Source: Rubrobacteraceae bacterium (GTDB taxonomy: Bacteria > Actinomycetota > Rubrobacteria > Rubrobacterales > Rubrobacteraceae). Taken from it: a DNA stretch of 64,000 bases. Under the pieces are notes generated by a model, which ran no database searches, was not told the DNA's origin, and worked only from the letters and a program-made list of their open reading frames with translations. Both the position numbers and the translations under genes were made by a program. Numbering within the stretch: position 1 is the stretch's first letter; the number at the start of each line of letters is the position of its first letter. Of this stretch, positions 34,239-47,908 are shown one piece after another. The DNA is taken from the NCBI GenBank assembly GCA_050331175.1, contig JBHJHC010000021.1:7206-71205 (forward strand). Reading direction: 5' to 3'.

Positions 34239-35048
34239 GTGGTGCTGCAAGGGCCGAGCTTCGGTGACATCTACTATCTTGAGGGCGAGCCGCTCGTTCT
34301 CGGCAGCAATCCTTTCCAGGCAGACATCGTGGTTCGGGACGTGGAGGTCGAACCGGAACACGTTCAACTCTACAGTGGCGGACCAGGCTACGTCGTTAAG
34401 GATCTCAGTACCGGGAAGCCAACTTTCATAAACGGAGATCGTGTGGCAGAGCCTCTCCCCGTGCGCTCTGGAGACCGTATTTTCGTCGGAAATAGCATTC
34501 TGGAGTTTGTGGACCAGGACCCCCTAAAAGAGCAGTTCCACAAGAAAATACAACGGATGATCAACCAGGACTACCTGACAGGCCTGCTCGCCAAAAACCG
34601 CTTTGATGAGAGGTTCGAGCAAACCCTGGAAATCTGTCAGGAGAACGAGAGTATATTGAGCGTCTTGATGGCCGACATAGACAACCTCAAGAAGATAAAC
34701 GACTCCTACGGACACCTGCTGGGCGAGTTCGTGGTGGGCGAGATCGGGCGCATCATCCACGATTGTCTGGAATCCGAAGAGTTCTTCGCGAGCCGCTTTG
34801 GAGGCGATGAGTACCAGGCGATCCTGCCCGGCCTTACCAAAGACGAAGCCACCGAAATCGCCGAGGAGATCCGCCACAGCATCGAAGAGTTTACGTTCGA
34901 GCACGAAGGCGCTTACGCGAACCCGACTCTTTCCCTGGGCGTCGCCTCCTATCCCGAGGACGGGGACAACCGGGACAAGCTCACCCATTCCGCCGACAAA
35001 GCTCTCTACCGGGCGAAGCACGCCGGCGGCAACTCGGTTTCTCAATAG
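34239..35048 (+). CDS. FHA-domain diguanylate cyclase (GGDEF domain with a GGDEY variant)
   Basis: The N-terminus is an FHA domain (LVLGSNP.ADIVV.D..V...H..L....GYVVKDLSTGKPTFING). The C-terminus is a GGDEF domain (DYLTGL..R, ADIDNLKKINDSYGH, RFGGDEYQAIL). The exact start is uncertain: a strong AGGAGGAGG lies at 34201-34209. Confidence 0.8.
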   Translation: MVLQGPSFGDIYYLEGEPLVLGSNPFQADIVVRDVEVEPEHVQLYSGGPGYVVKDLSTGKPTFINGDRVAEPLPVRSGDRIFVGNSILEFVDQDPLKEQFHKKIQRMINQDYLTGLLAKNRFDERFEQTLEICQENESILSVLMADIDNLKKINDSYGHLLGEFVVGEIGRIIHDCLESEEFFASRFGGDEYQAILPGLTKDEATEIAEEIRHSIEEFTFEHEGAYANPTLSLGVASYPEDGDNRDKLTHSADKALYRAKHAGGNSVSQ

Positions 35049-35091
35049 CCCGCCGCGCCAGGATGAGGTCCGGCCGGTAGAACGCCGGCGG

Positions 35092-36561
35092 TTATCCGGA
35101 GTCCGGTCCAGTTGCCGCAGACCATATCGGGCGCATCTCCCACGAGTCAAGGGATTTCAGCTTCGCGCCCCCGCCGGACGGCAGCAGACCCAGGCCGAGG
35201 CTGCCGGGCAGGGAGGGGTAGATCCTGCCCGAGATGCACGCCCGGTCGTTGGCGAACACCTCGATCACGGAGCGGTCGAGGAAGATATGAAGCCTCAGCA
35301 GCTCGCCGGGATGGAGCTCTAGTTCTCCCCACCGGAGATCCCGCCGGACGTTGGGAGCCAGGCTGGACCGCGTGGTATCCAGGATCAAACGCCCGCGCCC
35401 GCTGTCGTACGCCACGATCGTCTCCTCTTCACCCCCCGGCGAAAGCCGCACTTTCAGGCCGAGGCTGGCAGCATCCCCCACCTCGAACACCGCCAGGATC
35501 TCCAAACTGTCTCCCCGAACGCCTTCGAGCATCCCGGAGGATGCGGGGGTGAGATCCAGATCCCCGAACCGGTGATGTTTGCCCCGGAGCCCTTGGAGCT
35601 CCGGGACGGGCTCTAAGCCGAGCTTACCGTCGGATCTCATAGACAATACCCGGGGCAAGGACAATACCCCAGCCCATCCGGCTTCCAGGGCCGCCCGCGC
35701 GTCCCGGCCTTCCCACAACCAGCCCCACATGATCCGGCGTCCCTCTTTATCCAGGAGCGTTTGCGGGGCGTAGAAGTATCCGCCAGGATCGATAATCCTC
35801 AGCATCTCCGGGATGAACTTGTGGTCGGCATACGCCCCGGCGAAGTACACGGTGTAGTGGGGGTCTTCACCGTCGAATACCGAGGCTAGGAGCACGTGTT
35901 TGTCTTCCAGCGCGAAGAAATCCGGACACTCCCACATCGAACCGGTCCAGGCCGGTTCGGTGCGGGTTTCGTCTCCAACGTATAGAGGGTGCACGTATTC
36001 CCAACGGATGAGATCCCCGGACCTGTAGAGCAAGGCGGCACCGCCTACGCCCTCGAGGCCGGATCCGACGATCTGGTACCAGGTATCGCCCTCCTTCCAC
36101 ACGCAATGGTCCCGGAAGCCGGTGGTGTTCAGTTCTTCGGGAGGCGAAGGGATTACCGGGTTTCCACCGTACTTCTTCCAGGCAACCAGCTCGTCGTCGA
36201 GGCTCGTCGCCAAACATGGCAGCTGGGCCTCGCCTCGCACGCCGGTGTAGATCAGGGTCGGCGTGCCACGGTCGTCAACCGCGCAACCGGAGTAGCAGCC
36301 GTCTTCGTCCGGCCCCCCGGGTGTCGGCGTCAGCGCAACCGGTAAGTCCTCCCAGTGCACCAGGTCCTCGCTCGCGGCGTGGCCCCACCGGATAGCGTCG
36401 TGGACCGGACTGTTAGGGTTGTACTGGTAGAAAAGATGGTACCGTCCCCGCCACTCCATAAGGCCGTTAGGGTCGTTGATCCAATTCGCCGGCGGCAAGA
36501 AGTGGTAAAGAGGACGATGCGGATCATTCGCCCAACTCCGCCGGTACATTATCTCACCCAT
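35092..36561 (-). CDS. GH32 beta-fructofuranosidase (sucrose-6-phosphate hydrolase/invertase/levanase family)
   Basis: Contains WINDPNG, FRD and WECPDFF catalytic blocks. I prefer the ATG at 36561 (GGGAGG 8 nt upstream); the track start is 36621. Confidence 0.85.
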   Translation of the reverse strand: MGEIMYRRSWANDPHRPLYHFLPPANWINDPNGLMEWRGRYHLFYQYNPNSPVHDAIRWGHAASEDLVHWEDLPVALTPTPGGPDEDGCYSGCAVDDRGTPTLIYTGVRGEAQLPCLATSLDDELVAWKKYGGNPVIPSPPEELNTTGFRDHCVWKEGDTWYQIVGSGLEGVGGAALLYRSGDLIRWEYVHPLYVGDETRTEPAWTGSMWECPDFFALEDKHVLLASVFDGEDPHYTVYFAGAYADHKFIPEMLRIIDPGGYFYAPQTLLDKEGRRIMWGWLWEGRDARAALEAGWAGVLSLPRVLSMRSDGKLGLEPVPELQGLRGKHHRFGDLDLTPASSGMLEGVRGDSLEILAVFEVGDAASLGLKVRLSPGGEEETIVAYDSGRGRLILDTTRSSLAPNVRRDLRWGELELHPGELLRLHIFLDRSVIEVFANDRACISGRIYPSLPGSLGLGLLPSGGGAKLKSLDSWEMRPIWSAATGPDSG

Positions 36562-36661
36562 CCTTACATCCTCCCACTTCTCCGCTATCATCCCCCGCCC
36601 AGGAAACTGCGGCAGACCCAAGTGTCCTAGAAGCCTGTGGAAGGGTAGCGTATCCTGTCTC

Positions 36662-38245
36662 TTACCACCACCAGATTACGACGGCGGCCGTTACCAGAAA
36701 GAGCACGATGGAAAGGTATCGGTAGTTGTAGTACCAGGGTATCTCTTCGAGTTCCCGAGATTCCTCCCGCCACAGTTCACGATGCCACGTCAACCCTTCA
36801 ATCTTCTCGTCCGGTGGCGGGTCCGTAGCCAGACTCACGCCGGCCAGGATCAGGAAACTAACGACCAACGAGATGCCGGAAGCATAGAGAAATTGGATCT
36901 TGAAGACCCCGAGTATCTCGTTCAGGACGAACCCAAACACGCCTAGAGGAACGCCTATGACCAGCGTGGCGAAACCGCCGTGCCGATTAGCCCGAGCCCA
37001 GAAAATACCGCCGAGAAACACTACTACTACCGGGGGTGTGATATACGCGAGCACTGACTGCAAGTATTGCCAGAGCGTGGGAAAGCGGGTTATTTGTGGC
37101 GCCCATATTATCGCGACGATCATGGCGACCACCGTGGCTATACGCCCGATGTACACCAGGGAGGCCTGACTGGTGTCGGGCCGGATCGTCTTGACGAAGT
37201 CCATTGTGACCATTGTGGCAGCCGAGTTGAGTACCGAGTCGACGCTGGAAGTGATGGCCGCAACCAGCGCCGCCAGAATTACGCCCCGCAGACCGACTGG
37301 CAAAAGGTCGAACGCCAGCGTAGGCCACACGAGGTCGGGGTTCTGAAGGTTTGGATAGAGTGCGAGAGCCATAGTTCCCGGGAGAACCATTATGAACAGC
37401 GGCGGTATCTTGAGAAATCCTGCGAACAACGAGCCCCACCTGCCATGGTTGAGGCTTCTCGCCCCCAACGTACGCTGCACGATGAGTTGGTTCGAGGTCC
37501 AGAAATATATCCCTATTATGAGTACACCGGTGAATAAGCCGGGCCAGGGTAATGCTTCGTCTCCGATAGGTTGGACGATGTGCAAAGCGCCTTCGGGAGC
37601 GGCCTCTTCAACCGCGCCCCAAGAAGGTATCGCCCGGTAAGTCAGAATAGAGATTACCATAGCCCCGATGATCAGTACGACGGCTTGTATTGAGTCGCTG
37701 ATCACCACGGCCCCGAGTCCGCCAAATACGGTATATATTCCCGCGAGCACGGCCAGCGCGAGGATATCTATCCACAGGGGGATCTCCGGGTACAGCGTCC
37801 GGATCACGATACCCCCCGCATATAGAGCAGCGGCCATGTCTATGAACATGTTCGCAAACAGGTTGAAACCGGAGAACGCCAATCGCGAGCGCACATCGTA
37901 GCGTTTTTCGAGGAACTCGGGCATCGTAAAGACCCTGGAGCGCAGGTAGAATGGCAGGATAAAGAAGATGAAAATTATCAGTATTATGGCCGCCATCCAC
38001 TCGTAGGAATAGACGGAGATACCAGAATTGTATCCGGCGCCCGCAAGCCCTACAAAGGAGCTACCGCTCATGTTGGTAGCAAAGAGCGAGAACCCGATCA
38101 GGGGCCACACAAAGTTGCGGCCGCCGAGGAAGTAGTCGTCCGAATCCTCGTTCTTACCGGCTAGTAACAAAGGTATTATTCTACTCGCGATAAGATACAC
38201 TACAAGAACAGTAATATCTATGGCGCCAACGCTTAGATCAGGCAC
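36662..38245 (-). CDS. Sodium:solute symporter (SSS family), copy 2
   Basis: 527 aa and collinear with 20024-21619. The GTG start has GGGAGG 5 nt upstream and an in-frame stop 15 nt upstream. Confidence 0.85.
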   Translation of the reverse strand: MPDLSVGAIDITVLVVYLIASRIIPLLLAGKNEDSDDYFLGGRNFVWPLIGFSLFATNMSGSSFVGLAGAGYNSGISVYSYEWMAAIILIIFIFFILPFYLRSRVFTMPEFLEKRYDVRSRLAFSGFNLFANMFIDMAAALYAGGIVIRTLYPEIPLWIDILALAVLAGIYTVFGGLGAVVISDSIQAVVLIIGAMVISILTYRAIPSWGAVEEAAPEGALHIVQPIGDEALPWPGLFTGVLIIGIYFWTSNQLIVQRTLGARSLNHGRWGSLFAGFLKIPPLFIMVLPGTMALALYPNLQNPDLVWPTLAFDLLPVGLRGVILAALVAAITSSVDSVLNSAATMVTMDFVKTIRPDTSQASLVYIGRIATVVAMIVAIIWAPQITRFPTLWQYLQSVLAYITPPVVVVFLGGIFWARANRHGGFATLVIGVPLGVFGFVLNEILGVFKIQFLYASGISLVVSFLILAGVSLATDPPPDEKIEGLTWHRELWREESRELEEIPWYYNYRYLSIVLFLVTAAVVIWWW

Positions 38246-38247
38246 AG

Positions 38248-38340
38248 TTACCTCCCTCTAGAACGGCTCTTCGCTACAAATCCCGGCCGCGTAAGCCATC
38301 GCTCGCCACGATAGCCAACCGCGTACCGCACGGGGTCCAT
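38248..38340 (-). other. Candidate 30-codon upstream ORF in the symporter leader
   Basis: GGAGGTG-ATG GAC CCC ... AGG TAA, with the stop 2 nt before the symporter GTG. The SD spacing is short (2 nt), so translation is doubtful. Confidence 0.2.
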
Positions 38341-38449
38341 CACCTCCGAAAAACCCAGGTATAGCCTCCGAAACCAGCCACTATCTGCCATGCCTCAGAC
38401 CGTCCACACTTGTTCTTCCAAGCACTTTTCCATCCCGCTGTTTCATTTA

Positions 38450-38463
38450 CTAACACGTTTTAG
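38450..38463. promoter_or_regulatory. LacI-type operator candidate 1 (CTAACACGTTTTAG; flanks extend to TTTACTAA-N6-TTAGTAAA)
   Basis: A 14-bp near-palindrome with a central CG. It lies 8-21 nt downstream of the predicted TSS of the symporter/GH32 promoter. Confidence 0.45.
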
Positions 38464-38477
38464 TAAATGGTTTTAGC

Positions 38478-38506
38478 ACTGTAACAGCCTTGTTGATTGC
38501 TGTCAA
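38478..38506 (-). promoter_or_regulatory. Candidate promoter TTGACA-17-TACAGT for the symporter-GH32 operon
   Basis: Minus-strand hexamers at 38506-38501 and 38483-38478 with an exact 17-nt spacer. Confidence 0.45.
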
Positions 38507-38580
38507 CGTTATGTGCTTGTACGCCTCGACGAGGTTTATTCGGCAGCCTGGGCGTAGACACCGGCTTGGTGTAAGATTTC

Positions 38581-38594
38581 CTAATACGTTTTAG
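38581..38594. promoter_or_regulatory. LacI-type operator candidate 2 (CTAATACGTTTTAG)
   Basis: Same 14-mer as site 1 except for one base. It ends 27 nt upstream of the LacI-family gene start. Confidence 0.45.
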
Positions 38595-38621
38595 TTCTAC
38601 AAACATGGAAGCCAGGAGGCT

Positions 38622-39638
38622 GTGACGCAAAGAAAGCGGGCACCAACGATCAGCGATATTGCACGGTTGGCGGGGGTTTCCCCGACCACGGTGTCGTTCG
38701 TGTTGAACGAAGTAAGCGGCAGCGGCATATCCGAGGAGACCCAGAGCAGGGTAAAGAGCTTTGCCCACGAGCTTGGCTACCGGCCAAACGCCACGGCGAA
38801 GCTGCTCAGGACGAATCGGTCTCACACCATAGGTTTCGTTACAGATGAGATAGCGTCCACTCCGTTTGCGGGAAATGTCATCAAGGGCGCCCAGGATGCA
38901 GCCTGGGACAACGAGAAGATCCTGATGATAGTAAACACGGACCGCAACCAGGAAATCAAAGAGTCTGCCGTGGAGATGATTCTGGAGCGTCGGGTAGAGG
39001 GGATCATCTACGCCGCCATGTACCATCAGGCCGTCGAGCCGCCAACCCGCTCTCACGAAGTGCCGCTGGTACTGCTCGATTGTTTCTCGGAAGACCTGGC
39101 CTTCACCTCCGTGGTTCCTGATGAGGTCTCGGGCGGCCACACGGCGACGGAGGTTCTGCTAGCCAAAGGGCACCGGAAGATCGGCTTCATCAACCTCACA
39201 CCCGGCCTGCCGGCGGCGGTTGGCCGCCTTGAAGGCTACAAACAAGCCCTGGCAGAGTATGGCGTCGGCTTTGACGCATCGTTGGTCAAGTACAGCGACG
39301 GCACGGCAAACGGCGGATACCTTTGCGCTTTGGAGATGTTGCGGCGCGAGGAACTCCCGACAGCAATCTTCTGTGGCACGGACCATGTAGCGATGGGCAC
39401 CTACGAGGCGCTGAAAGAGCGCGGCCTGAACATTCCCGAAGACGTGGCGATCGTCGGATTCGATAACCAGGAACTCATTGCTCCCCACCTTCGGCCCCCG
39501 CTCTCAACGGTTGCGCTACCACATTACGAAATGGGCCAACGGGCGGTAGAGCATCTCATCCGGCAGGCAGCGCACGCGCAGAGCACACCGGTGCAGCACA
39601 CCATTGCCTGTCCTTACGTCGAGCGTGAATCAGTTTGA
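38622..39638 (+). CDS. LacI-family transcriptional regulator
   Basis: Contains the HTH TISDIARLAGVSPTTVSFVLN and a periplasmic-binding-protein-like sugar-binding core. Confidence 0.85.
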   Translation: MTQRKRAPTISDIARLAGVSPTTVSFVLNEVSGSGISEETQSRVKSFAHELGYRPNATAKLLRTNRSHTIGFVTDEIASTPFAGNVIKGAQDAAWDNEKILMIVNTDRNQEIKESAVEMILERRVEGIIYAAMYHQAVEPPTRSHEVPLVLLDCFSEDLAFTSVVPDEVSGGHTATEVLLAKGHRKIGFINLTPGLPAAVGRLEGYKQALAEYGVGFDASLVKYSDGTANGGYLCALEMLRREELPTAIFCGTDHVAMGTYEALKERGLNIPEDVAIVGFDNQELIAPHLRPPLSTVALPHYEMGQRAVEHLIRQAAHAQSTPVQHTIACPYVERESV

Positions 39639-39642
39639 GGGA

Positions 39643-41464: not shown

Positions 41465-42622
41465 CTATGAGCCGTTTAGCGCCTCCTCGGCGAGGCGGGC
41501 GCCTTCGACCATGTTGACGAGCTTCTCGTAGGAGACTTCCCAACTGCGGGTCCGAAGGCCGCAGTCGGTGTTTACCTCGATTCGCTCCGGGCCCAGCACC
41601 GCCGCCGCATAGAGGATACGGTCGCGCACCAGCTCCGGTGGTTCGACGAAATCCGTGTGGATGTCTATAACCCCGAGCCCGATCTTCCCCTCCCACGGGC
41701 TCTCCCGGAAGTTGCCGAGTATAGAGTAGCCGGGCCGATCCTCGCCCTTCGTACCGGTCTCCAGCGAGTCGCGGTTGGAAAACTCCAGCTGCAACTCATA
41801 GCAATTTTCAAGCTCTTCGATGTGGGGAAAGAGACAACCATAATCCGAAAAGCACACGTGCATGGAGCAGCGGGCCTCTATCCCCTCCCGGGTTGCGTTG
41901 AAGGTCTCGACGAGGAGCGGTACTTCGTTGGGGCGGGTGGTGGCGGCAGGCTCGTCGATCTGGACCCACCCGGCCCCGGCCTCGACTATCCCGGTCACGT
42001 TAGGTCTCACCAAGTCGCGGGCCGCATCCACCCCGAATTGCCGGCGCGCCGCTATCCGGCGCCCCGTCGAAGCTCCGAGTAAACTTTCCTCCCCAACGTA
42101 GTATTCGTCGTAGGACCAATCCATGATGGTATACGCTCCGGTGAAAGGAACCTTTATTGCCCGGTCGGTGTGCCCGCTGACGAACTGGTACTCTTCCAGA
42201 TCGTAGGCCGTTTCGACGAGTGGTCTCCCGACCACGGCGGCCTTGGTGTAGTACTTGTTGTCCCAGGAGCGGACCGTGCCCCGGGCCTCGAAACCCTTTG
42301 CATGCTTTACGGCATGGTCGTACATCTCGCTCCGGCGCTGCTCTCCATCGTAGACTACGTCGAGGCCGCTGCTCTCCAGGAGCCGGAGTCCGTAGAGGGC
42401 GGCGTAGTCCTGAATCCTCGCCTTTTCTGAGTCCGAGAACCCCGTGCCCTTCGAGAGCGTCTGTGCAAGCTCCTCCACGCCGGCTATTCCGAGCCGAGAG
42501 CCCCACTTGCGGGCGTACTCGACATCGGACTCGTCCACGGGCCGGCCAACGATGGGCTTCACGCGCCACCCGGGCTTGGCGAGGCTCCCGATCTCACGAG
42601 TAACGAACCTGACTTCAACCAT
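41465..42622 (-). CDS. Cobalamin-independent methionine synthase, catalytic (MetE C-terminal-like, Meth_synt_2) subunit
   Basis: Zn-site motifs are conserved: MHVCFSD (His-x-Cys), LQLEFSNRD (Glu) and VNTDCGLRTRSWE (Cys). Also contains the substrate block IDEPAA. Confidence 0.75.
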   Translation of the reverse strand: MVEVRFVTREIGSLAKPGWRVKPIVGRPVDESDVEYARKWGSRLGIAGVEELAQTLSKGTGFSDSEKARIQDYAALYGLRLLESSGLDVVYDGEQRRSEMYDHAVKHAKGFEARGTVRSWDNKYYTKAAVVGRPLVETAYDLEEYQFVSGHTDRAIKVPFTGAYTIMDWSYDEYYVGEESLLGASTGRRIAARRQFGVDAARDLVRPNVTGIVEAGAGWVQIDEPAATTRPNEVPLLVETFNATREGIEARCSMHVCFSDYGCLFPHIEELENCYELQLEFSNRDSLETGTKGEDRPGYSILGNFRESPWEGKIGLGVIDIHTDFVEPPELVRDRILYAAAVLGPERIEVNTDCGLRTRSWEVSYEKLVNMVEGARLAEEALNGS

Positions 42623-42623
42623 G

Positions 42624-43553
42624 CTACTGCTCCTCCTTCAGGATGCGGGCCGCCGCGCCGAGCCGCAGAACCTTCTCCCGGGCGATCCTCTCCGGTACGA
42701 ACTGCAGATCCCCGTTCGGCGCCAGATGCAAATCCCCCTCTAGTTCTTCCAGAAGTTGTCGGCCAAACTCCGCAACTATTTCGGGCTCCTCCAGCAAGGA
42801 GTTGCGGGCATCCACCACTCCCGCGAGCAGGATCTTTGGAAACGGGCGCGGCAAGGAAGCTATGTCCGTCGCGTAGAAATCCACCCCGATGGCCGCCACG
42901 TTCAGCCCCACTAACTCCCCGAGCAACCCTCCCGCATCACCGAATGGGAGCTGGAGCGCGAGTGGCACGGGGCTGTTCAACGAGCCCAGCGCCTCGCCGA
43001 GCCCGAAGATGTCGCCAGCCTCGCCATAGAGGGCGGTCTCCTGTAAGACGACCATAGCGCAACCGTTGCCGGCGAGCCATCTTATCTGGGGTCCGATCAC
43101 CGTTTCGGCCACGACGCGCGGCTCGAGTTTGTCTGTCGCAACCTGTGCCAGGGTGTACGGTGAAGGCAGCGTCGCAACCCATCTTTCGCGGGGCAAGTCG
43201 CCAATTCGGAAAAGAGGTTCTCCCACAGGCTCGACCAACCTCGGTGTCTCCGTTTCGGCCGCTGGCGCCCGGAAAAACGTATTCGTGTTCAGATAGCGCG
43301 TCAAAGGACCAGGATGCAGGCCCTGCGTCCCCGTAGAAAAGGGACGGAAGAGGTCCTGCCAGTTCAAGAGGCCGTCGGAGAGGTAGTCGAAACCCGCCTC
43401 ACGCTGAACTTCGAGGAAACCGTGCAGGTCTTCATCCCGCTGCTTCTCTACCACTTGCCCGGCGGCGCGCCCCCGATCCAGGTCGCGGGTGGCCTGCACC
43501 AACTCCTCCGTGCGGGCGTAAATGCCGGGCGCATAGGTTCTTATCTCCGGCAA
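42624..43553 (-). CDS. MetE N-terminal-like (Meth_synt_1) subunit
   Basis: AGFDYLSDG, RYLNTNTFFRAP (compare WFDTNYHYIVPE) and VVLQETAL (compare IQIDEPAL). It has no Zn ligands. Its stop is 1 nt before the catalytic-subunit start. Confidence 0.65.
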   Translation of the reverse strand: MPEIRTYAPGIYARTEELVQATRDLDRGRAAGQVVEKQRDEDLHGFLEVQREAGFDYLSDGLLNWQDLFRPFSTGTQGLHPGPLTRYLNTNTFFRAPAAETETPRLVEPVGEPLFRIGDLPRERWVATLPSPYTLAQVATDKLEPRVVAETVIGPQIRWLAGNGCAMVVLQETALYGEAGDIFGLGEALGSLNSPVPLALQLPFGDAGGLLGELVGLNVAAIGVDFYATDIASLPRPFPKILLAGVVDARNSLLEEPEIVAEFGRQLLEELEGDLHLAPNGDLQFVPERIAREKVLRLGAAARILKEEQ

Positions 43554-43596: not shown

Positions 43597-44658
43597 TCAA
43601 TCCCAGACCAGGGTACCGGCGTTCTGGTACTCGGTGACGCGGGTCTCGAAGAAGTTCTTCTCCTTGGCGAGGTCCATCGTCTCGCTCATCCAGGGGAACG
43701 GGTTGCGGGAGCCGTACTGGGCCGGGAGCCCGATGCGGCCGAGCCGCCGGTCGGCGATGAACTGGACGTACTCGCGAAACAGCCCGGCGTTGAGGCCGAG
43801 GACGCCGTCGGGCAGGCAATCGCTGGCGTAGGCGACCTCGTACTCGACGGATTGCCGGATCATCGCCACGATCTCGTCCTTGAGTTCCGGGGTCCAGGCT
43901 TCGGGGTTCTCTTCCTTGATGGAGTTGATGAGGTCTATCCCGAAGTTCAGGTGAACCGTCTCGTCGCGCAGGATGTACTGGAACTGCTCCCCGATGCCGG
44001 TCATCCGGTTCTGGCGGTGGAAGGAGAGGATCATGACGAACCCGGAGTAGAAGAAGATGCCCTCCATGATCACGTAGAACCCTACCAGGTTCTTGATGAA
44101 CTCCTGGATGCCCTCCGTGGTCCGGGTTGAGAAATCCGGCCGCAGGACAGACGCCGTTAGCGACATTACGAACTCGTCTTTGCCCCGGATGGAGTCGACC
44201 TCGTTGTACATGTTGAAGACCTCCCGGCCGTCGAGGCCGAGCGACTCCACTATGTAGTGAAAGGTGTGGGTGTGGATGGCTTCCTCGAAGGCCTGGCGCA
44301 AGAGGTACTGCCGGGCTTCGGGGTTGGTGATGTGCTCGAAGATGGAGAGCACGATGTTGTTGCCTACGAGGCTCTCGCCGGTCGAGAAGAACCCCAGGTT
44401 CCGCATTATGACGAGCCGCTCCCCCTCGGTAAGCCGGTCGGAATGCCAGAGCGAGATGTCGCCCTGCATCGGGACCTCGGAGGGCATCCAGTTGTTGGCG
44501 CAGCCGTTGAGGTAGTGCTCCCAGGCCCACTCGTACTTCAGGGGCCAGAGCTGGTTCACGTCCACGGCCCGGCAGTTGAGCAGGCGCTTGTCCTCGGCGT
44601 TGATCCGCTTCGCCAGGTCGTAGGGTTGTTCGCTACCGGTCGTGCAGCATTGGGACAT
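43597..44658 (-). CDS. nrdB: Ribonucleotide reductase small subunit, class Ic (Chlamydia-type R2c)
   Basis: 353 aa. It is nearly collinear with my recollection of C. trachomatis R2: [92 protein letters not shown]. Phe133 (TTT, 44262-44260) occupies the radical-Tyr position and Glu95 replaces the usual Asp ligand. Confidence 0.9.
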
Positions 44659-44672
44659 GGATGGATTCCTTT

Positions 44673-47480
44673 CTACTGGCAGGCTTCGCACTCGGGCTCG
44701 TCGGGGGAACACGTCTCCCCCCGAACCGCTTCTTTGGCAACGACCGGCATCTCCCCGGTGTCCACCCGGCCGGAGGCGGAACGGCTCTTCATCCAGCGGG
44801 GCTGGATGCCGCGCTTGTTTACGTCCATGCTGGACTTCTCGACGTTCGTGGCGCCGCGGGACCGCAGGTAGTAGGTGGTCTTGAGGCCCTTGCGCCAGGC
44901 GTTCAGGTACATCTCGGAGAGGAGCTTGCCGCTCGGTTGGGCGAGGTAGAGGTTCAGAGACTGGCCCATGTCGATCCACTTCTGCCGCCGCCCGGCGCAG
45001 TCTATGAGCCAGCCGGGGTCTATCTCGAACGCCGTCAGGTAGAGCTTCTTGAGGTCTTCGGGGACCCGCCCTATCTCCTGCACCGAGCCGTCGAAGTGCT
45101 TGAGGTCCTCGATCATTTCCTCGTCCCAAAGCCCGCGCTTTTTGAGGTTCCGCACCAGATAGGGGTTGACGACCGTGAACTCCCCGGAGAGGTTGGATTT
45201 GACGAACAGGTTGGAGTACGCCGGCTCGATGGACTGGTAGGATCCCGCGATGTTGGAGATGGTGGCCGTCGGCGCTATCGCCATAACGTTGCTGTTCCTC
45301 ATACCATGCTCGGCCAGGACCTCCCGGACCGGCTGCCAGTCGAGCGTCGTTGAGCTGTCCATCTCGACCTCGACCCCGCGCTCTGCTTCGAGTAGCGCCA
45401 CCGTGTCTATCGGTAGAAGGCCGCGGCTCCACTTGGAACCCTCGTAGCTCGAATAGGCACCCCGGGTGGCGGCGAGGTTCGCCGAGGCCATTATGGCGTG
45501 GTAGGAGATCAGCTCCATCGAATAGTCGGCGAACCGGACGGCCTCTTCGCTCGCGTAGCTGATGCGCTGCTCGAAAAGGGCGTCCTGAAAACCCATGATC
45601 CCGAGCCCGACCGGCCGGTGCCGCAGGTTTGCTTCCCGGGCCTCGGGTGTGGGATAGAAGTTGATGTCTACGACGTTGTCCAGCATCCGCACCGCGGTCT
45701 TTATGGTCCCGGAAAGCAACTCCTCGTCCAGTCCGTAGGCGTCGGTGTGGGCGGCGAGGTTTATGGAGGCCAGGTTGCAGACGGCGGTCTCTTCGGGGCT
45801 GGTGTTGAGGAGAATTTCGGTGCAGAGGTTCGAGCTGTGGACGACGCCGGCGTGGTCTTGCGGAGACCGGACGTTGGAAGGGTCCTTGAAGGTGATCCAG
45901 GGGTGCCCCGTTTCGAAGAGCATGGAGAGCATCTTGCGCCACAGCTGCCCGGCCTCGACGCGCTTGTGCTGGCGCAGCCCGCCCTCATCAGCCATCCGCT
46001 CGTACGCAACGTAGCGCTCCTCGAACTTCTTGCCGGAGAGGTCGTGCAGGTCGGGGACTTCGTTTGGTGAGAAGAGCGTCCACTGTCCGTTTTCGATCAC
46101 GCGCTTGATAAAGAGGTCCGGGATCCAGTTGGCCGTGTTCATGTCGGGCGTCCGGCGCCGCTCGTCGCCGGTGTTCTTCCTGAGCTCCAGGAAGTCCTCC
46201 ACGTCCAGATGCCAGGTCTCCACGTAAGAGCACGCCGCGCCCTGTCTCTTTCCCCCCTGATTGACCGCCACCGCCGTATCGTTGACGATCTTGAGGAACG
46301 GAACGACGCCCTGGCTCTCGCCGCCGGTGCCTTTGATGAGGGAGCCCGTCGCCCGGATGTTGGTCCAGTCGTTCCCCAATCCCCCTGCCCACTTGGACAG
46401 CCTGGCGTTGTCCGAGATGGCCTTGAAGATGCCCTCGATGTCGTCGCTAACGGTGGTGAGGTAGCAAGAGGAGAGCTGGGGATGTAGCGTGCCGCTGTTG
46501 AAGAGCGTGGGTGTGGCGGAGACGACCCGAAAGTACGAAAGCGCCTCGTAAAACTCTATGGCGCGCGCCTCCCGGTCATCCTCGTTCAGGGCCAGGCCCA
46601 TCGCGACCCGCATCCAGAAGTATTGAGGGCACTCGATCCGGCGTCCACCGGCCTCGATGAGGTAGCGGTCGTAGATGGTCTGGAGGCCGAGATAGGTGAA
46701 GTCCTCGTCCCGCCCCGGTCGCAACGCGGCAGAGAGCTGGTCGAGGTCGAACGCCAGCAGGTCCGGGGAAACTCGTCCGGCCTCTACTCCGGCTCGCAGG
46801 TAGCCGGCGAAGTTTTCGCGGTAGGTCCGGTCGAAGTCTTCTTCGGTTGGCGAACCGTTCCAGGCTTCCCGGTAGATCACCCCGAGCAGCAGCCGGGCGG
46901 CCGCGGTGCCGTAGGCGGGATCCACCTCGATGTGAGACCGGGCGGCCAGGATGGTGGCGCGCCGGATCTGCTGCGGCGTGATGCCGTCGTAGAGCGAGCC
47001 CAGAGCTTCGTCCAGGATGCGCCCCGGGTCCACGGGCTCCAGGTTCCGGCAGGCGGCCTCGATCCTCCGCCGGACGCGCCACGGCTCGAAGACGCTCTCG
47101 CGGCCATCCTCGTGGCGCACGTTTATGGCCGGCCGGGCACCGTCGGCGGGTTCCCCGCGGAACATGCGGGCTTTGTTGTGTTCCTCGCGGTAGACGATAT
47201 ACCTGCGGGCGACCCGGTAGTTGCCGTCCCGCATCAACTGCTCCTCGACGAGGTCCTGGATCTTCTCCACGTCCACCGCGCCACCCGACTCCGGGAGCCG
47301 ATCAACCACCGCGGTCGTGGTGCGTTGTATCTCCTCACCAAGCTCCGGACCCAACCCGGCGCCCTTTGGCAGGCCTTGCTCCGCCCGGAACGCGTTGGCG
47401 ACGGCCGTGGAGATTCTGGCCGTCTCGAAGGCCACGACCCGCCCGTCCCGTTTCCTGACCGATGTTTCTTGTGGGATCAC
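44673..47480 (-). CDS. nrdA: Ribonucleotide reductase large subunit, class I, with tandem N-terminal ATP-cone-like segments
   Basis: [17 protein letters not shown].. and ..[23 protein letters not shown].. are ATP-cone-like. Catalytic blocks are SSCYL, NLCTEI and LMPTA-like, and the C-terminus has the CEAC pair. The GTG at 47480 follows AAAGGGG; the track ORF to 47783 runs into the riboswitch. Confidence 0.9.
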
Positions 47481-47674
47481 CGCTCTACCCCTTTCGCGCC
47501 GCTTTTCTACTGCGGACGGCCGCGGAGACCGGCGAGAAAGATAGGTAGCGCAAAAGAGATTCCGTGCCGGCAGGGTAAACGTCAAGGTGCTGCCACTACC
47601 GGCGACGCTCTTTTGGCGACCAGCCTCTCCCTCGAAGGCTCGAGCCACCCTCCCGCACACCCGTGCGGGCCACC

Positions 47675-47840
47675 GGCAGGTCTTCGGACTCGCAGGCCCT
47701 TCGATCGGAGATCGAACCCTACTCACCGCCGCTTCCCAACCTCGAAAGGCCAGTGCTCCATGGCGGTTTTCGTTCCTGCTCACCGCTGCGGGGCAGTTCC
47801 GGATTTACACCGGATTCCCTCTTGCGACACCGGAACCTGC
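47675..47840 (-). promoter_or_regulatory. Cobalamin (B12) riboswitch aptamer
   Basis: The minus strand reads GCAGGTTCCGGTGTCGCAAGAGGGAATCCGGTGTAAATCCGGAACTGCCCCGCAGCGGTGAGC...GAGCACTGGCC...TTGGGAAGCGGCGG...AGTCCGAAGACCTGCC. The conserved core and the 3' B12-box are present, and P1 closes by GCAGGT/ACCTGC. Confidence 0.85.
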
Positions 47841-47879
47841 GATACTCCCTAGGCTCCGGTGAACCGGCAGATGGTGGAG

Positions 47880-47908
47880 ATTATGTTGCCTGACCGCGGC
47901 GCTGTCAA
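47880..47908 (-). promoter_or_regulatory. Candidate promoter TTGACA-17-CATAAT driving the riboswitch-nrdAB leader
   Basis: Minus-strand -35 at 47908-47903 and -10 at 47885-47880, with a 17-nt spacer. It lies about 35 nt upstream of the aptamer. Confidence 0.5.

Follow-up and report, generated by a model that had tools for sequence, protein, structure and literature searches.

The window analysed here, a stretch of 64,000 nucleotides (64 kb) from a Rubrobacter-like actinobacterium, contains two adjacent genes on the minus strand that encode the subunits of a class I ribonucleotide reductase (RNR). The nrdB gene (43597..44658, minus strand) starts with the ATG at 44658, just before which lies AAAGGA, and encodes a 353-aa beta subunit whose assignment to class Ic (R2c-type) is based on its translation, a residue check and profile searches. 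It follows nrdA (44676..47480, minus strand) after a gap of 17 nt, so that a cognate full-length alpha subunit of 935 aa is encoded next to NrdB. The mechanically called open reading frame of nrdA begins at 47783 and overlaps a riboswitch. The alignment with four related leaders, termed A1, places the likely start at the GTG at 47480, which lies behind a conserved GAAAGGGG and is replaced by ATG in three of the relatives. The 935-aa product that results from this start agrees with the 927-936 aa called for NrdA in related genomes. Further upstream are a leader, a cobalamin (B12) riboswitch aptamer and a promoter-like site, and behind nrdB lie two genes for MetE-like proteins. No other RNR (nrdJ, nrdEF or nrdDG) was detected in the 64-kb window by tblastn searches with NrdA and NrdB.

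The alpha subunit was identified by Pfam, the NCBIfam model NF005544 and the PDB entry 5IM3. Pfam recovers two N-terminal ATP-cone stretches, the all-alpha domain Ribonuc_red_lgN and the barrel domain lgC, and the C-terminal tail carries the Cys pair of a redox tail. NF005544, which describes two-ATP-cone proteins similar to the one of Pseudomonas aeruginosa, gives 1415 bits at a cutoff of 965. For NF009029, a model of 1046 residues, NrdA scores just under the cutoff, and its alignment to this profile starts only at position 118. Its best match in the PDB is the P. aeruginosa NrdA (5IM3, E = 0), a protein of the Acinetobacter/Pseudomonas-type class Ia systems, which belong to the same broad lineage. 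The two proteins align end to end, including the double ATP cone and the C-terminal Cys pair.

A previous sequence-only reading of this DNA had described NrdB as a Chlamydia-type class Ic R2, in which Glu95 instead of Asp is the first metal ligand and Phe133 (TTT at 44262-44260) occupies the position where the radical-bearing Tyr is expected. A scripted check of residues and codons bears out both substitutions. E95 (GAG, 44376-44374) is found within FSTGESLVG and F133 within EEAIHTHTF, four residues past H129 (CAC, 44274-44272), which is the first His ligand. All six metal ligands (E95, E126, H129, E199, E233 and H236) are kept, as are the residues of electron and radical transfer, namely W57, the Trp near site 1, Y228 and the C-terminal Y344. 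The constant offset of +6 to the chlamydial protein, which had been proposed as well, is also seen: residues 16-352 align without a gap to residues 10-346 of 1SYY, and F133 pairs with F127 of that structure, so that the radical position holds a Phe and no Tyr. In this gapless alignment NrdB is 72% (242/337) identical to the R2c of Chlamydia trachomatis (1SYY, 4D8F, 4M1I). The chlamydial protein shares its ligands (E, E, H, E, E, H) and its C-terminal tail with the window NrdB and likewise has Phe at the radical site, and its W51, Y222 and Y338 are the equivalents of W57, Y228 and Y344.

Class Ic is defined by the missing radical Tyr, the N-terminal Glu ligand and the Mn/Fe cofactor (PMC4118035; PMC8463856). 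The substitutions that serve as criteria of this subclass, which is found in halobacteria and other bacteria, are also described in PMC3019208. When all PDB chains were searched with phmmer, the C. trachomatis R2 was recovered on top (4D8F, 1SYY and 2ANI, E ~1e-172), followed in fourth place by 6Y2N, the R2c of Saccharopolyspora erythraea (E 1.5e-139). The top four matches are thus all R2c proteins, and the next structure is reached only at ~1e-40. One of them, 2ANI, is the F127Y mutant of the C. trachomatis protein, and it departs from 1SYY exactly at the Phe column of the window NrdB. In a MAFFT alignment, the nearest Tyr-bearing relative that was retrieved, an Acinetobacter-type NrdB with 58% identity whose source record is filed as phage but appears to be chromosomal, has Asp and Tyr where the window NrdB has Glu95 and Phe133. 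The same is true for two phage class Ia NrdBs, whereas the NrdB of S. erythraea has Glu and Phe in these columns. Taken together, the E95/F133 signature, the R2c proteins at the top of the PDB ranking and the Asp/Tyr pair of the Tyr-type relatives make the assignment of NrdB as a class Ic (R2c) beta subunit well supported.

The record from which the Acinetobacter-type protein was retrieved (locus L092, CAKLQH020000007.1) is filed as 'Acinetobacter phage MD-2021a'. It carries rstAB and genes of the LysR, TetR and PhzF families near nrdAB and therefore resembles a bacterial chromosome. Its NrdB has 427 aa, a long N-terminal extension, 58% identity to the window NrdB, and the Asp and Tyr mentioned above.

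Profile searches also bear on whether NrdB could be an R2lox-type protein instead of an RNR subunit. R2lox proteins share the E/F-type signature and the Mn/Fe site with R2c (PMC9314684; PMC4118035), and NCBIfam R2lox models do give weak matches to NrdB. However, these reach 25-53 bits at cutoffs of 194-346, whereas NF005550, the model of the RNR beta subunit, is passed with 607.8 bits (608 rounded) at a cutoff of 309. The Pfam match is PF00268, and the NrdF and class Ia models of NCBIfam, like those of R2lox, remain far under their cutoffs. Moreover, a gap of 17 nt separates nrdB from a complete nrdA upstream, NrdB has kept the C-terminal tail that binds NrdA, Y344 included, and the 72% identity is to a protein, CtR2c, that has been characterised catalytically. 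The probability that NrdB is an R2lox protein is, in our estimate, practically nil, and we rejected this identity on the basis of the model scores and the adjacent nrdA. The clustering that the previous reading had proposed as a check gives the same picture, since in the PDB matches, the models and a neighbour-joining (NJ) tree NrdB groups with characterised R2c proteins and not with class Ia, Ib, Id or Ie proteins or R2lox.

The class Ic signature is widespread. A search of ~5.8 billion proteins with the window NrdB returned at least 8000 matches under 1e-30, of which the best 120 are 78-95% identical to it. Named sources include Rubrobacter calidifluminis (87%), Thermobaculum terrenum (84%), Chloroflexota, Hydrogenedentota, Bdellovibrionales and Oligoflexia, and a genome scan added, among the matches listed, Latescibacterota, Verrucomicrobiota, Planctomycetota, Lentisphaerales and many Chlamydiota. 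All of the best 120 homologues keep E95, F133 and every other residue that was checked. An analogous search seeded with the S. erythraea protein recovered a separate, equally large R2c clade from Pseudonocardiales, Nocardiopsis, Kribbella, Kineococcus, Micrococcales and others, and here too the Glu and the Phe are present in 120 of the best 120 homologues. The metal ligands and the radical-transfer residues are invariant across both sets. Since the E/F pair is found in each of these 240 homologues, and the nearest Tyr-bearing R2s have Asp and Tyr in the same columns, it is not a chance feature of this gene. Class Ic has been recorded among extremophiles, pathogens and halophilic archaea (PMC3019208; PMC4118035). 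With thousands of homologues across phyla, all inspected members of which have Glu and Phe, and with an R2c from S. erythraea already crystallised, class Ic is a commonplace, mainstream enzyme of free-living bacteria.

The similarity to the chlamydial R2 had been called striking in the previous reading, which had asked for a phylogeny because of a possible lateral transfer. The 72% ungapped identity confirms the similarity itself, but it does not reflect a special link, since Chlamydiota (72-74% identity) are the members of the clade that are farthest from the window NrdB. In the NJ tree, calculated from 336 columns, the window NrdB is found with Rubrobacter-like sequences, then with Thermobaculum and a Chloroflexota MAG, and then with Hydrogenedentota and others. 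The corresponding identities, within a stated range of 79-85%, are 85% for Thermobaculum and Chloroflexota, 83% for Hydrogenedentota and 80-81% for Bdellovibrionota and Latescibacterota. The actinomycete R2c clade forms a separate branch with ~60% identity. As far as these comparisons indicate, the likeness to the Chlamydia protein is an effect of slow evolution of the whole clade.

The composition and the surroundings of the genes agree with the tree. The GC3 of nrdB is 0.915, equal to or slightly higher than the highest values of neighbouring genes (0.78-0.90). The region is collinear over 11 kb, with ~77% nucleotide identity, with three Rubrobacter-like genomes and with R. calidifluminis. 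Rubrobacter-like genomes have the gene order rpoA-rplQ-ecfA-ecfA'-ecfT-truA-methyltransferase-riboswitch-nrdA-nrdB in common. Because of this fit in codon composition, the collinearity and the conserved gene order, nrdAB appears to be a long-time resident of these genomes. A recent lateral acquisition of nrdAB from Chlamydiae or another PVC bacterium could explain the 72% identity to C. trachomatis R2, as well as the fact that the R2c of other Actinomycetota (~60%) is less similar to the window NrdB than the Chlamydia-type clade is. It does not agree, however, with the greater distance of Chlamydiota than of Thermobaculum, Chloroflexota, Hydrogenedentota, Bdellovibrionota and Latescibacterota, with a GC3 that fits the host genes, or with the order truA-methyltransferase-riboswitch-nrdA-nrdB, which is conserved in Rubrobacter-like genomes including R. 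calidifluminis. We consider such a transfer very improbable and rejected it in view of the identity ranking, the NJ tree, the codon composition and the synteny; with Rubrobacter, Thermobaculum and Chloroflexota as the nearest sequences, nothing indicates a transfer from Chlamydia. What is possible, since the Rubrobacter NrdB does not group with that of other Actinomycetota, is that Rubrobacteria and a Thermobaculum/Chloroflexota-like lineage exchanged the genes long ago, an event that may have included the riboswitch and would not have involved Chlamydia.

Elsewhere in the window, at ~35034-39642, there is a 4.6-kb block of low GC content (52-58% compared with 63% for the window) that is absent from the collinear loci L081, L086 and L087. 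The block, with genes for a Na+:solute symporter, a GH32 (sucrose/fructan) hydrolase and, on the plus strand, a LacI-family regulator, sits between gatA and the next conserved gene and resembles a strain-specific insertion for sugar utilisation.

The previous reading had also placed nrdAB under the control of a B12 riboswitch, and this context is confirmed by Rfam. The cobalamin riboswitch aptamer (RF00174) in the leader of nrdA (47658..47883, minus strand) scores 99.9 bits at a gathering score of 31.5, covers the model in full length (1-189/189) and represents the sole family for which Rfam reaches its gathering threshold anywhere in the window. On the operon strand, it lies between nrdA and a putative sigma-70-like promoter (47880..47908, minus strand) that adjoins it upstream. 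This site, TTGACA-17-CATAAT at 47908-47880, was defined solely by its match to the consensus (11/12), and it is the only promoter-like site between 39000 and 49500. The leader between aptamer and nrdA (47481..47657, minus strand) is the presumed expression platform. Alignment A1, which comprises five Rubrobacter-like leaders, shows in it a hairpin (CCCGCAC-GGGT-GTGCGGG), the ribosome-binding site GAAAGGGG and a conserved block of 23 nt, GCCTTCGAGGGAGAGGCTGGTCG. This block comes after the short GC hairpin immediately 3' to the aptamer, is kept in five out of five leaders and may belong to the expression platform. The terminator scan detected no canonical terminator in the nrdA leader, the minimum free energy fold of the leader is unremarkable (z -0.71), and alignment A1 revealed conserved blocks but neither a clear alternative pairing nor a convincing anti-RBS element.

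All four of the Rubrobacter-like loci that were compared (L081, L082, L086 and L087), as well as Thermobaculum (L084), have the riboswitch in this position, with 93-121 bits. Outside Rubrobacter and Thermobaculum, 33 loci of the Chlamydia-type R2c clade, all from other phyla, have enough upstream sequence for the comparison, and a riboswitch was detected in one of them only. This locus (L023, CBHTTJ010000006.1), from the MAG of an uncultured bacterium, has the cobalamin riboswitch at 2575-2760, ~390 nt ahead of nrdA. That it is the single such case among the 33 suggests that the riboswitch has been recruited repeatedly and sporadically. No upstream riboswitch was found at the sampled chlamydial loci. 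In the actinomycete R2c clade, a cobalamin riboswitch of 95 bits lies directly upstream of nrdA-nrdB in S. erythraea NRRL 2338 (L088, AM420293.1, 3139-3342); in Actinopolymorpha it is absent.

These systems allow a comparison of the window operon with its relatives. In contrast to Chlamydia, the host is a free-living, Rubrobacter-like actinobacterium with 63% GC, and in contrast to the sampled chlamydial loci its operon has a B12 riboswitch in front. Chlamydial NrdA probably has three ATP cones, and the window NrdA is of the two-ATP-cone NF005544 type. The R2c of S. erythraea resembles that of the window in its class Ic signature, in its origin from a free-living, GC-rich actinomycete and in the riboswitch directly upstream of nrdA. 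The structure 6Y2N is identical to the S. erythraea NrdB (P0121) and carries FFATAES and HTHTF. However, this protein belongs to the separate actinomycete clade, with ~60% identity, and the S. erythraea NrdA has 814 aa and is without a listed ATP-cone match, unlike the window NrdA. The Acinetobacter-type systems differ from the window in the Asp and Tyr of their NrdB. In Streptomyces, finally, the class I operon nrdABS is preceded by a cobalamin riboswitch, as in the window, and its control by B12 has been demonstrated experimentally (Borovok 2006, cited in PMC12528414). The rationale given is that the class II enzyme NrdJ uses B12, so that the B12-independent RNR is repressed once B12 can serve NrdJ. 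The literature assigns the Streptomyces enzyme to class Ia, whereas that of the window is class Ic. Moreover, the window is without an evident nrdS-like gene and has the MetE-like genes after nrdB instead.

The expectation that a class Ic RNR under a B12 riboswitch would be unusual for a free-living, GC-rich bacterium does not hold in light of how common the class is and of the precedents in Streptomyces and S. erythraea. The nrdB gene is an ordinary, routine case of a known class with a known style of regulation, and the combination of class Ic and riboswitch is not new in kind. It nevertheless seems that it has not been remarked on explicitly before. A full-text search, as far as its matches were opened, yielded no paper that links a class Ic RNR with B12-riboswitch control, and literature searches found nothing specific to the RNR or the B12 of Rubrobacter.

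The two genes behind nrdB are possible members of the same operon. The first (42624..43553, minus strand) encodes a 309-aa protein similar to the MetE N-domain, with a weak match to Pfam Meth_synt_1 and matches under cutoff to NCBIfam models of the PRK06438/PRK04326 type. The second (41465..42622, minus strand) encodes a 385-aa protein that corresponds to a short (archaeal-type) MetE catalytic domain, with a match to Pfam Meth_synt_2 (E 2e-28) and 240 bits, under cutoff, for the NCBIfam 'methionine synthase' models PRK04326/PRK01207. When read from the sequence, it retains the zinc motifs H-x-C, E and C. The 309-aa gene is found 43 nt behind nrdB on the same strand, and the terminator scan detected no minus-strand terminator between the two. 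Given these short gaps and the lack of a detected terminator, the MetE-like pair may be co-transcribed with nrdAB and share its cobalamin riboswitch. L081 and L087 have the pair, whereas it is cleanly missing from L086, in which gatC comes after nrdB, and from L082/R. calidifluminis. This distribution points to a lineage-specific insertion behind a riboswitch-controlled operon.

The MetE-like genes raise the question of what the riboswitch controls. It might mainly regulate the MetE-like genes, with nrdAB as a bystander, or be an ON or non-standard switch, and in either case there would be no switch between RNR isozymes. Such a reading would fit with metE as a classic target of B12 riboswitches (PMC8123684), with the position of the pair only 43 nt behind nrdB without a detected terminator, and with the finding that no nrdJ is present in the 64-kb window. 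On the other hand, the riboswitch is found upstream of nrdA also in relatives that lack the MetE-like pair (L086, L082, L084, L088 and L023), which indicates that nrdAB is its conserved target and the pair a later addition. We therefore regard regulation aimed mainly at the MetE-like genes, or an ON or non-standard switch, as unlikely.

The explanation that we prefer, and consider highly probable overall, is a native Rubrobacter-like nrdA-nrdB operon for an oxygen-dependent class Ic RNR with a Mn(IV)/Fe(III) cofactor, which would be shut off by B12 through the riboswitch. The operon would be transcribed from the promoter at ~47908-47880 through the cobalamin riboswitch. By homology, and in view of Phe133 in place of the radical Tyr and Glu95 as the first ligand, NrdB most likely stores its oxidising equivalent in a Mn(IV)/Fe(III) cluster, which takes over the role of the tyrosyl radical. 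From there the equivalent would reach NrdA by way of W57 and the C-terminal Y344, the route also followed in the R2c of C. trachomatis. With B12 available, expression of the operon is most likely lowered by the riboswitch, an OFF polarity that is assumed from precedent. A B12-dependent class II RNR, whose gene (nrdJ) would be encoded elsewhere in the genome, would then take over, following the logic of the Streptomyces nrdABS. In the sub-lineage that has it, the split MetE-like pair behind nrdB is perhaps repressed by the same riboswitch.

A more far-reaching scenario, which we put forward tentatively and do not favour, is that one Rubrobacter sub-lineage has placed a single cobalamin riboswitch over a 'B12-sparing' operon that combines two unrelated B12-independent back-ups, namely a class Ic RNR with Mn/Fe and an archaeal-type MetE in split form, and that the riboswitch-nrdAB module was perhaps exchanged whole with a Thermobaculum/Chloroflexota-like lineage. 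Co-transcription of the pair would mean that a single riboswitch shuts off two back-up enzymes that are independent of B12. However, the use of methyl-corrinoid donors has been reported for short MetE homologues of the archaeal type, which would complicate a reading of the pair as a B12-independent back-up. A riboswitch that is possibly common to RNR and MetE-like genes would be a tidy compaction of a regulon, not a new principle.

The practical consequences of these results are small, although an R2c from a thermophile or extremophile, together with a two-ATP-cone NrdA, could be a convenient and stable system for studies of Mn/Fe cofactor assembly. For the enzyme family, the locus provides further evidence that class Ic is mainstream in free-living bacteria and not an adaptation of intracellular pathogens. 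B12 riboswitches seem to have become joined to class Ic nrdAB operons on repeated occasions, with cases in Rubrobacter and Thermobaculum, in Saccharopolyspora and in a single MAG.
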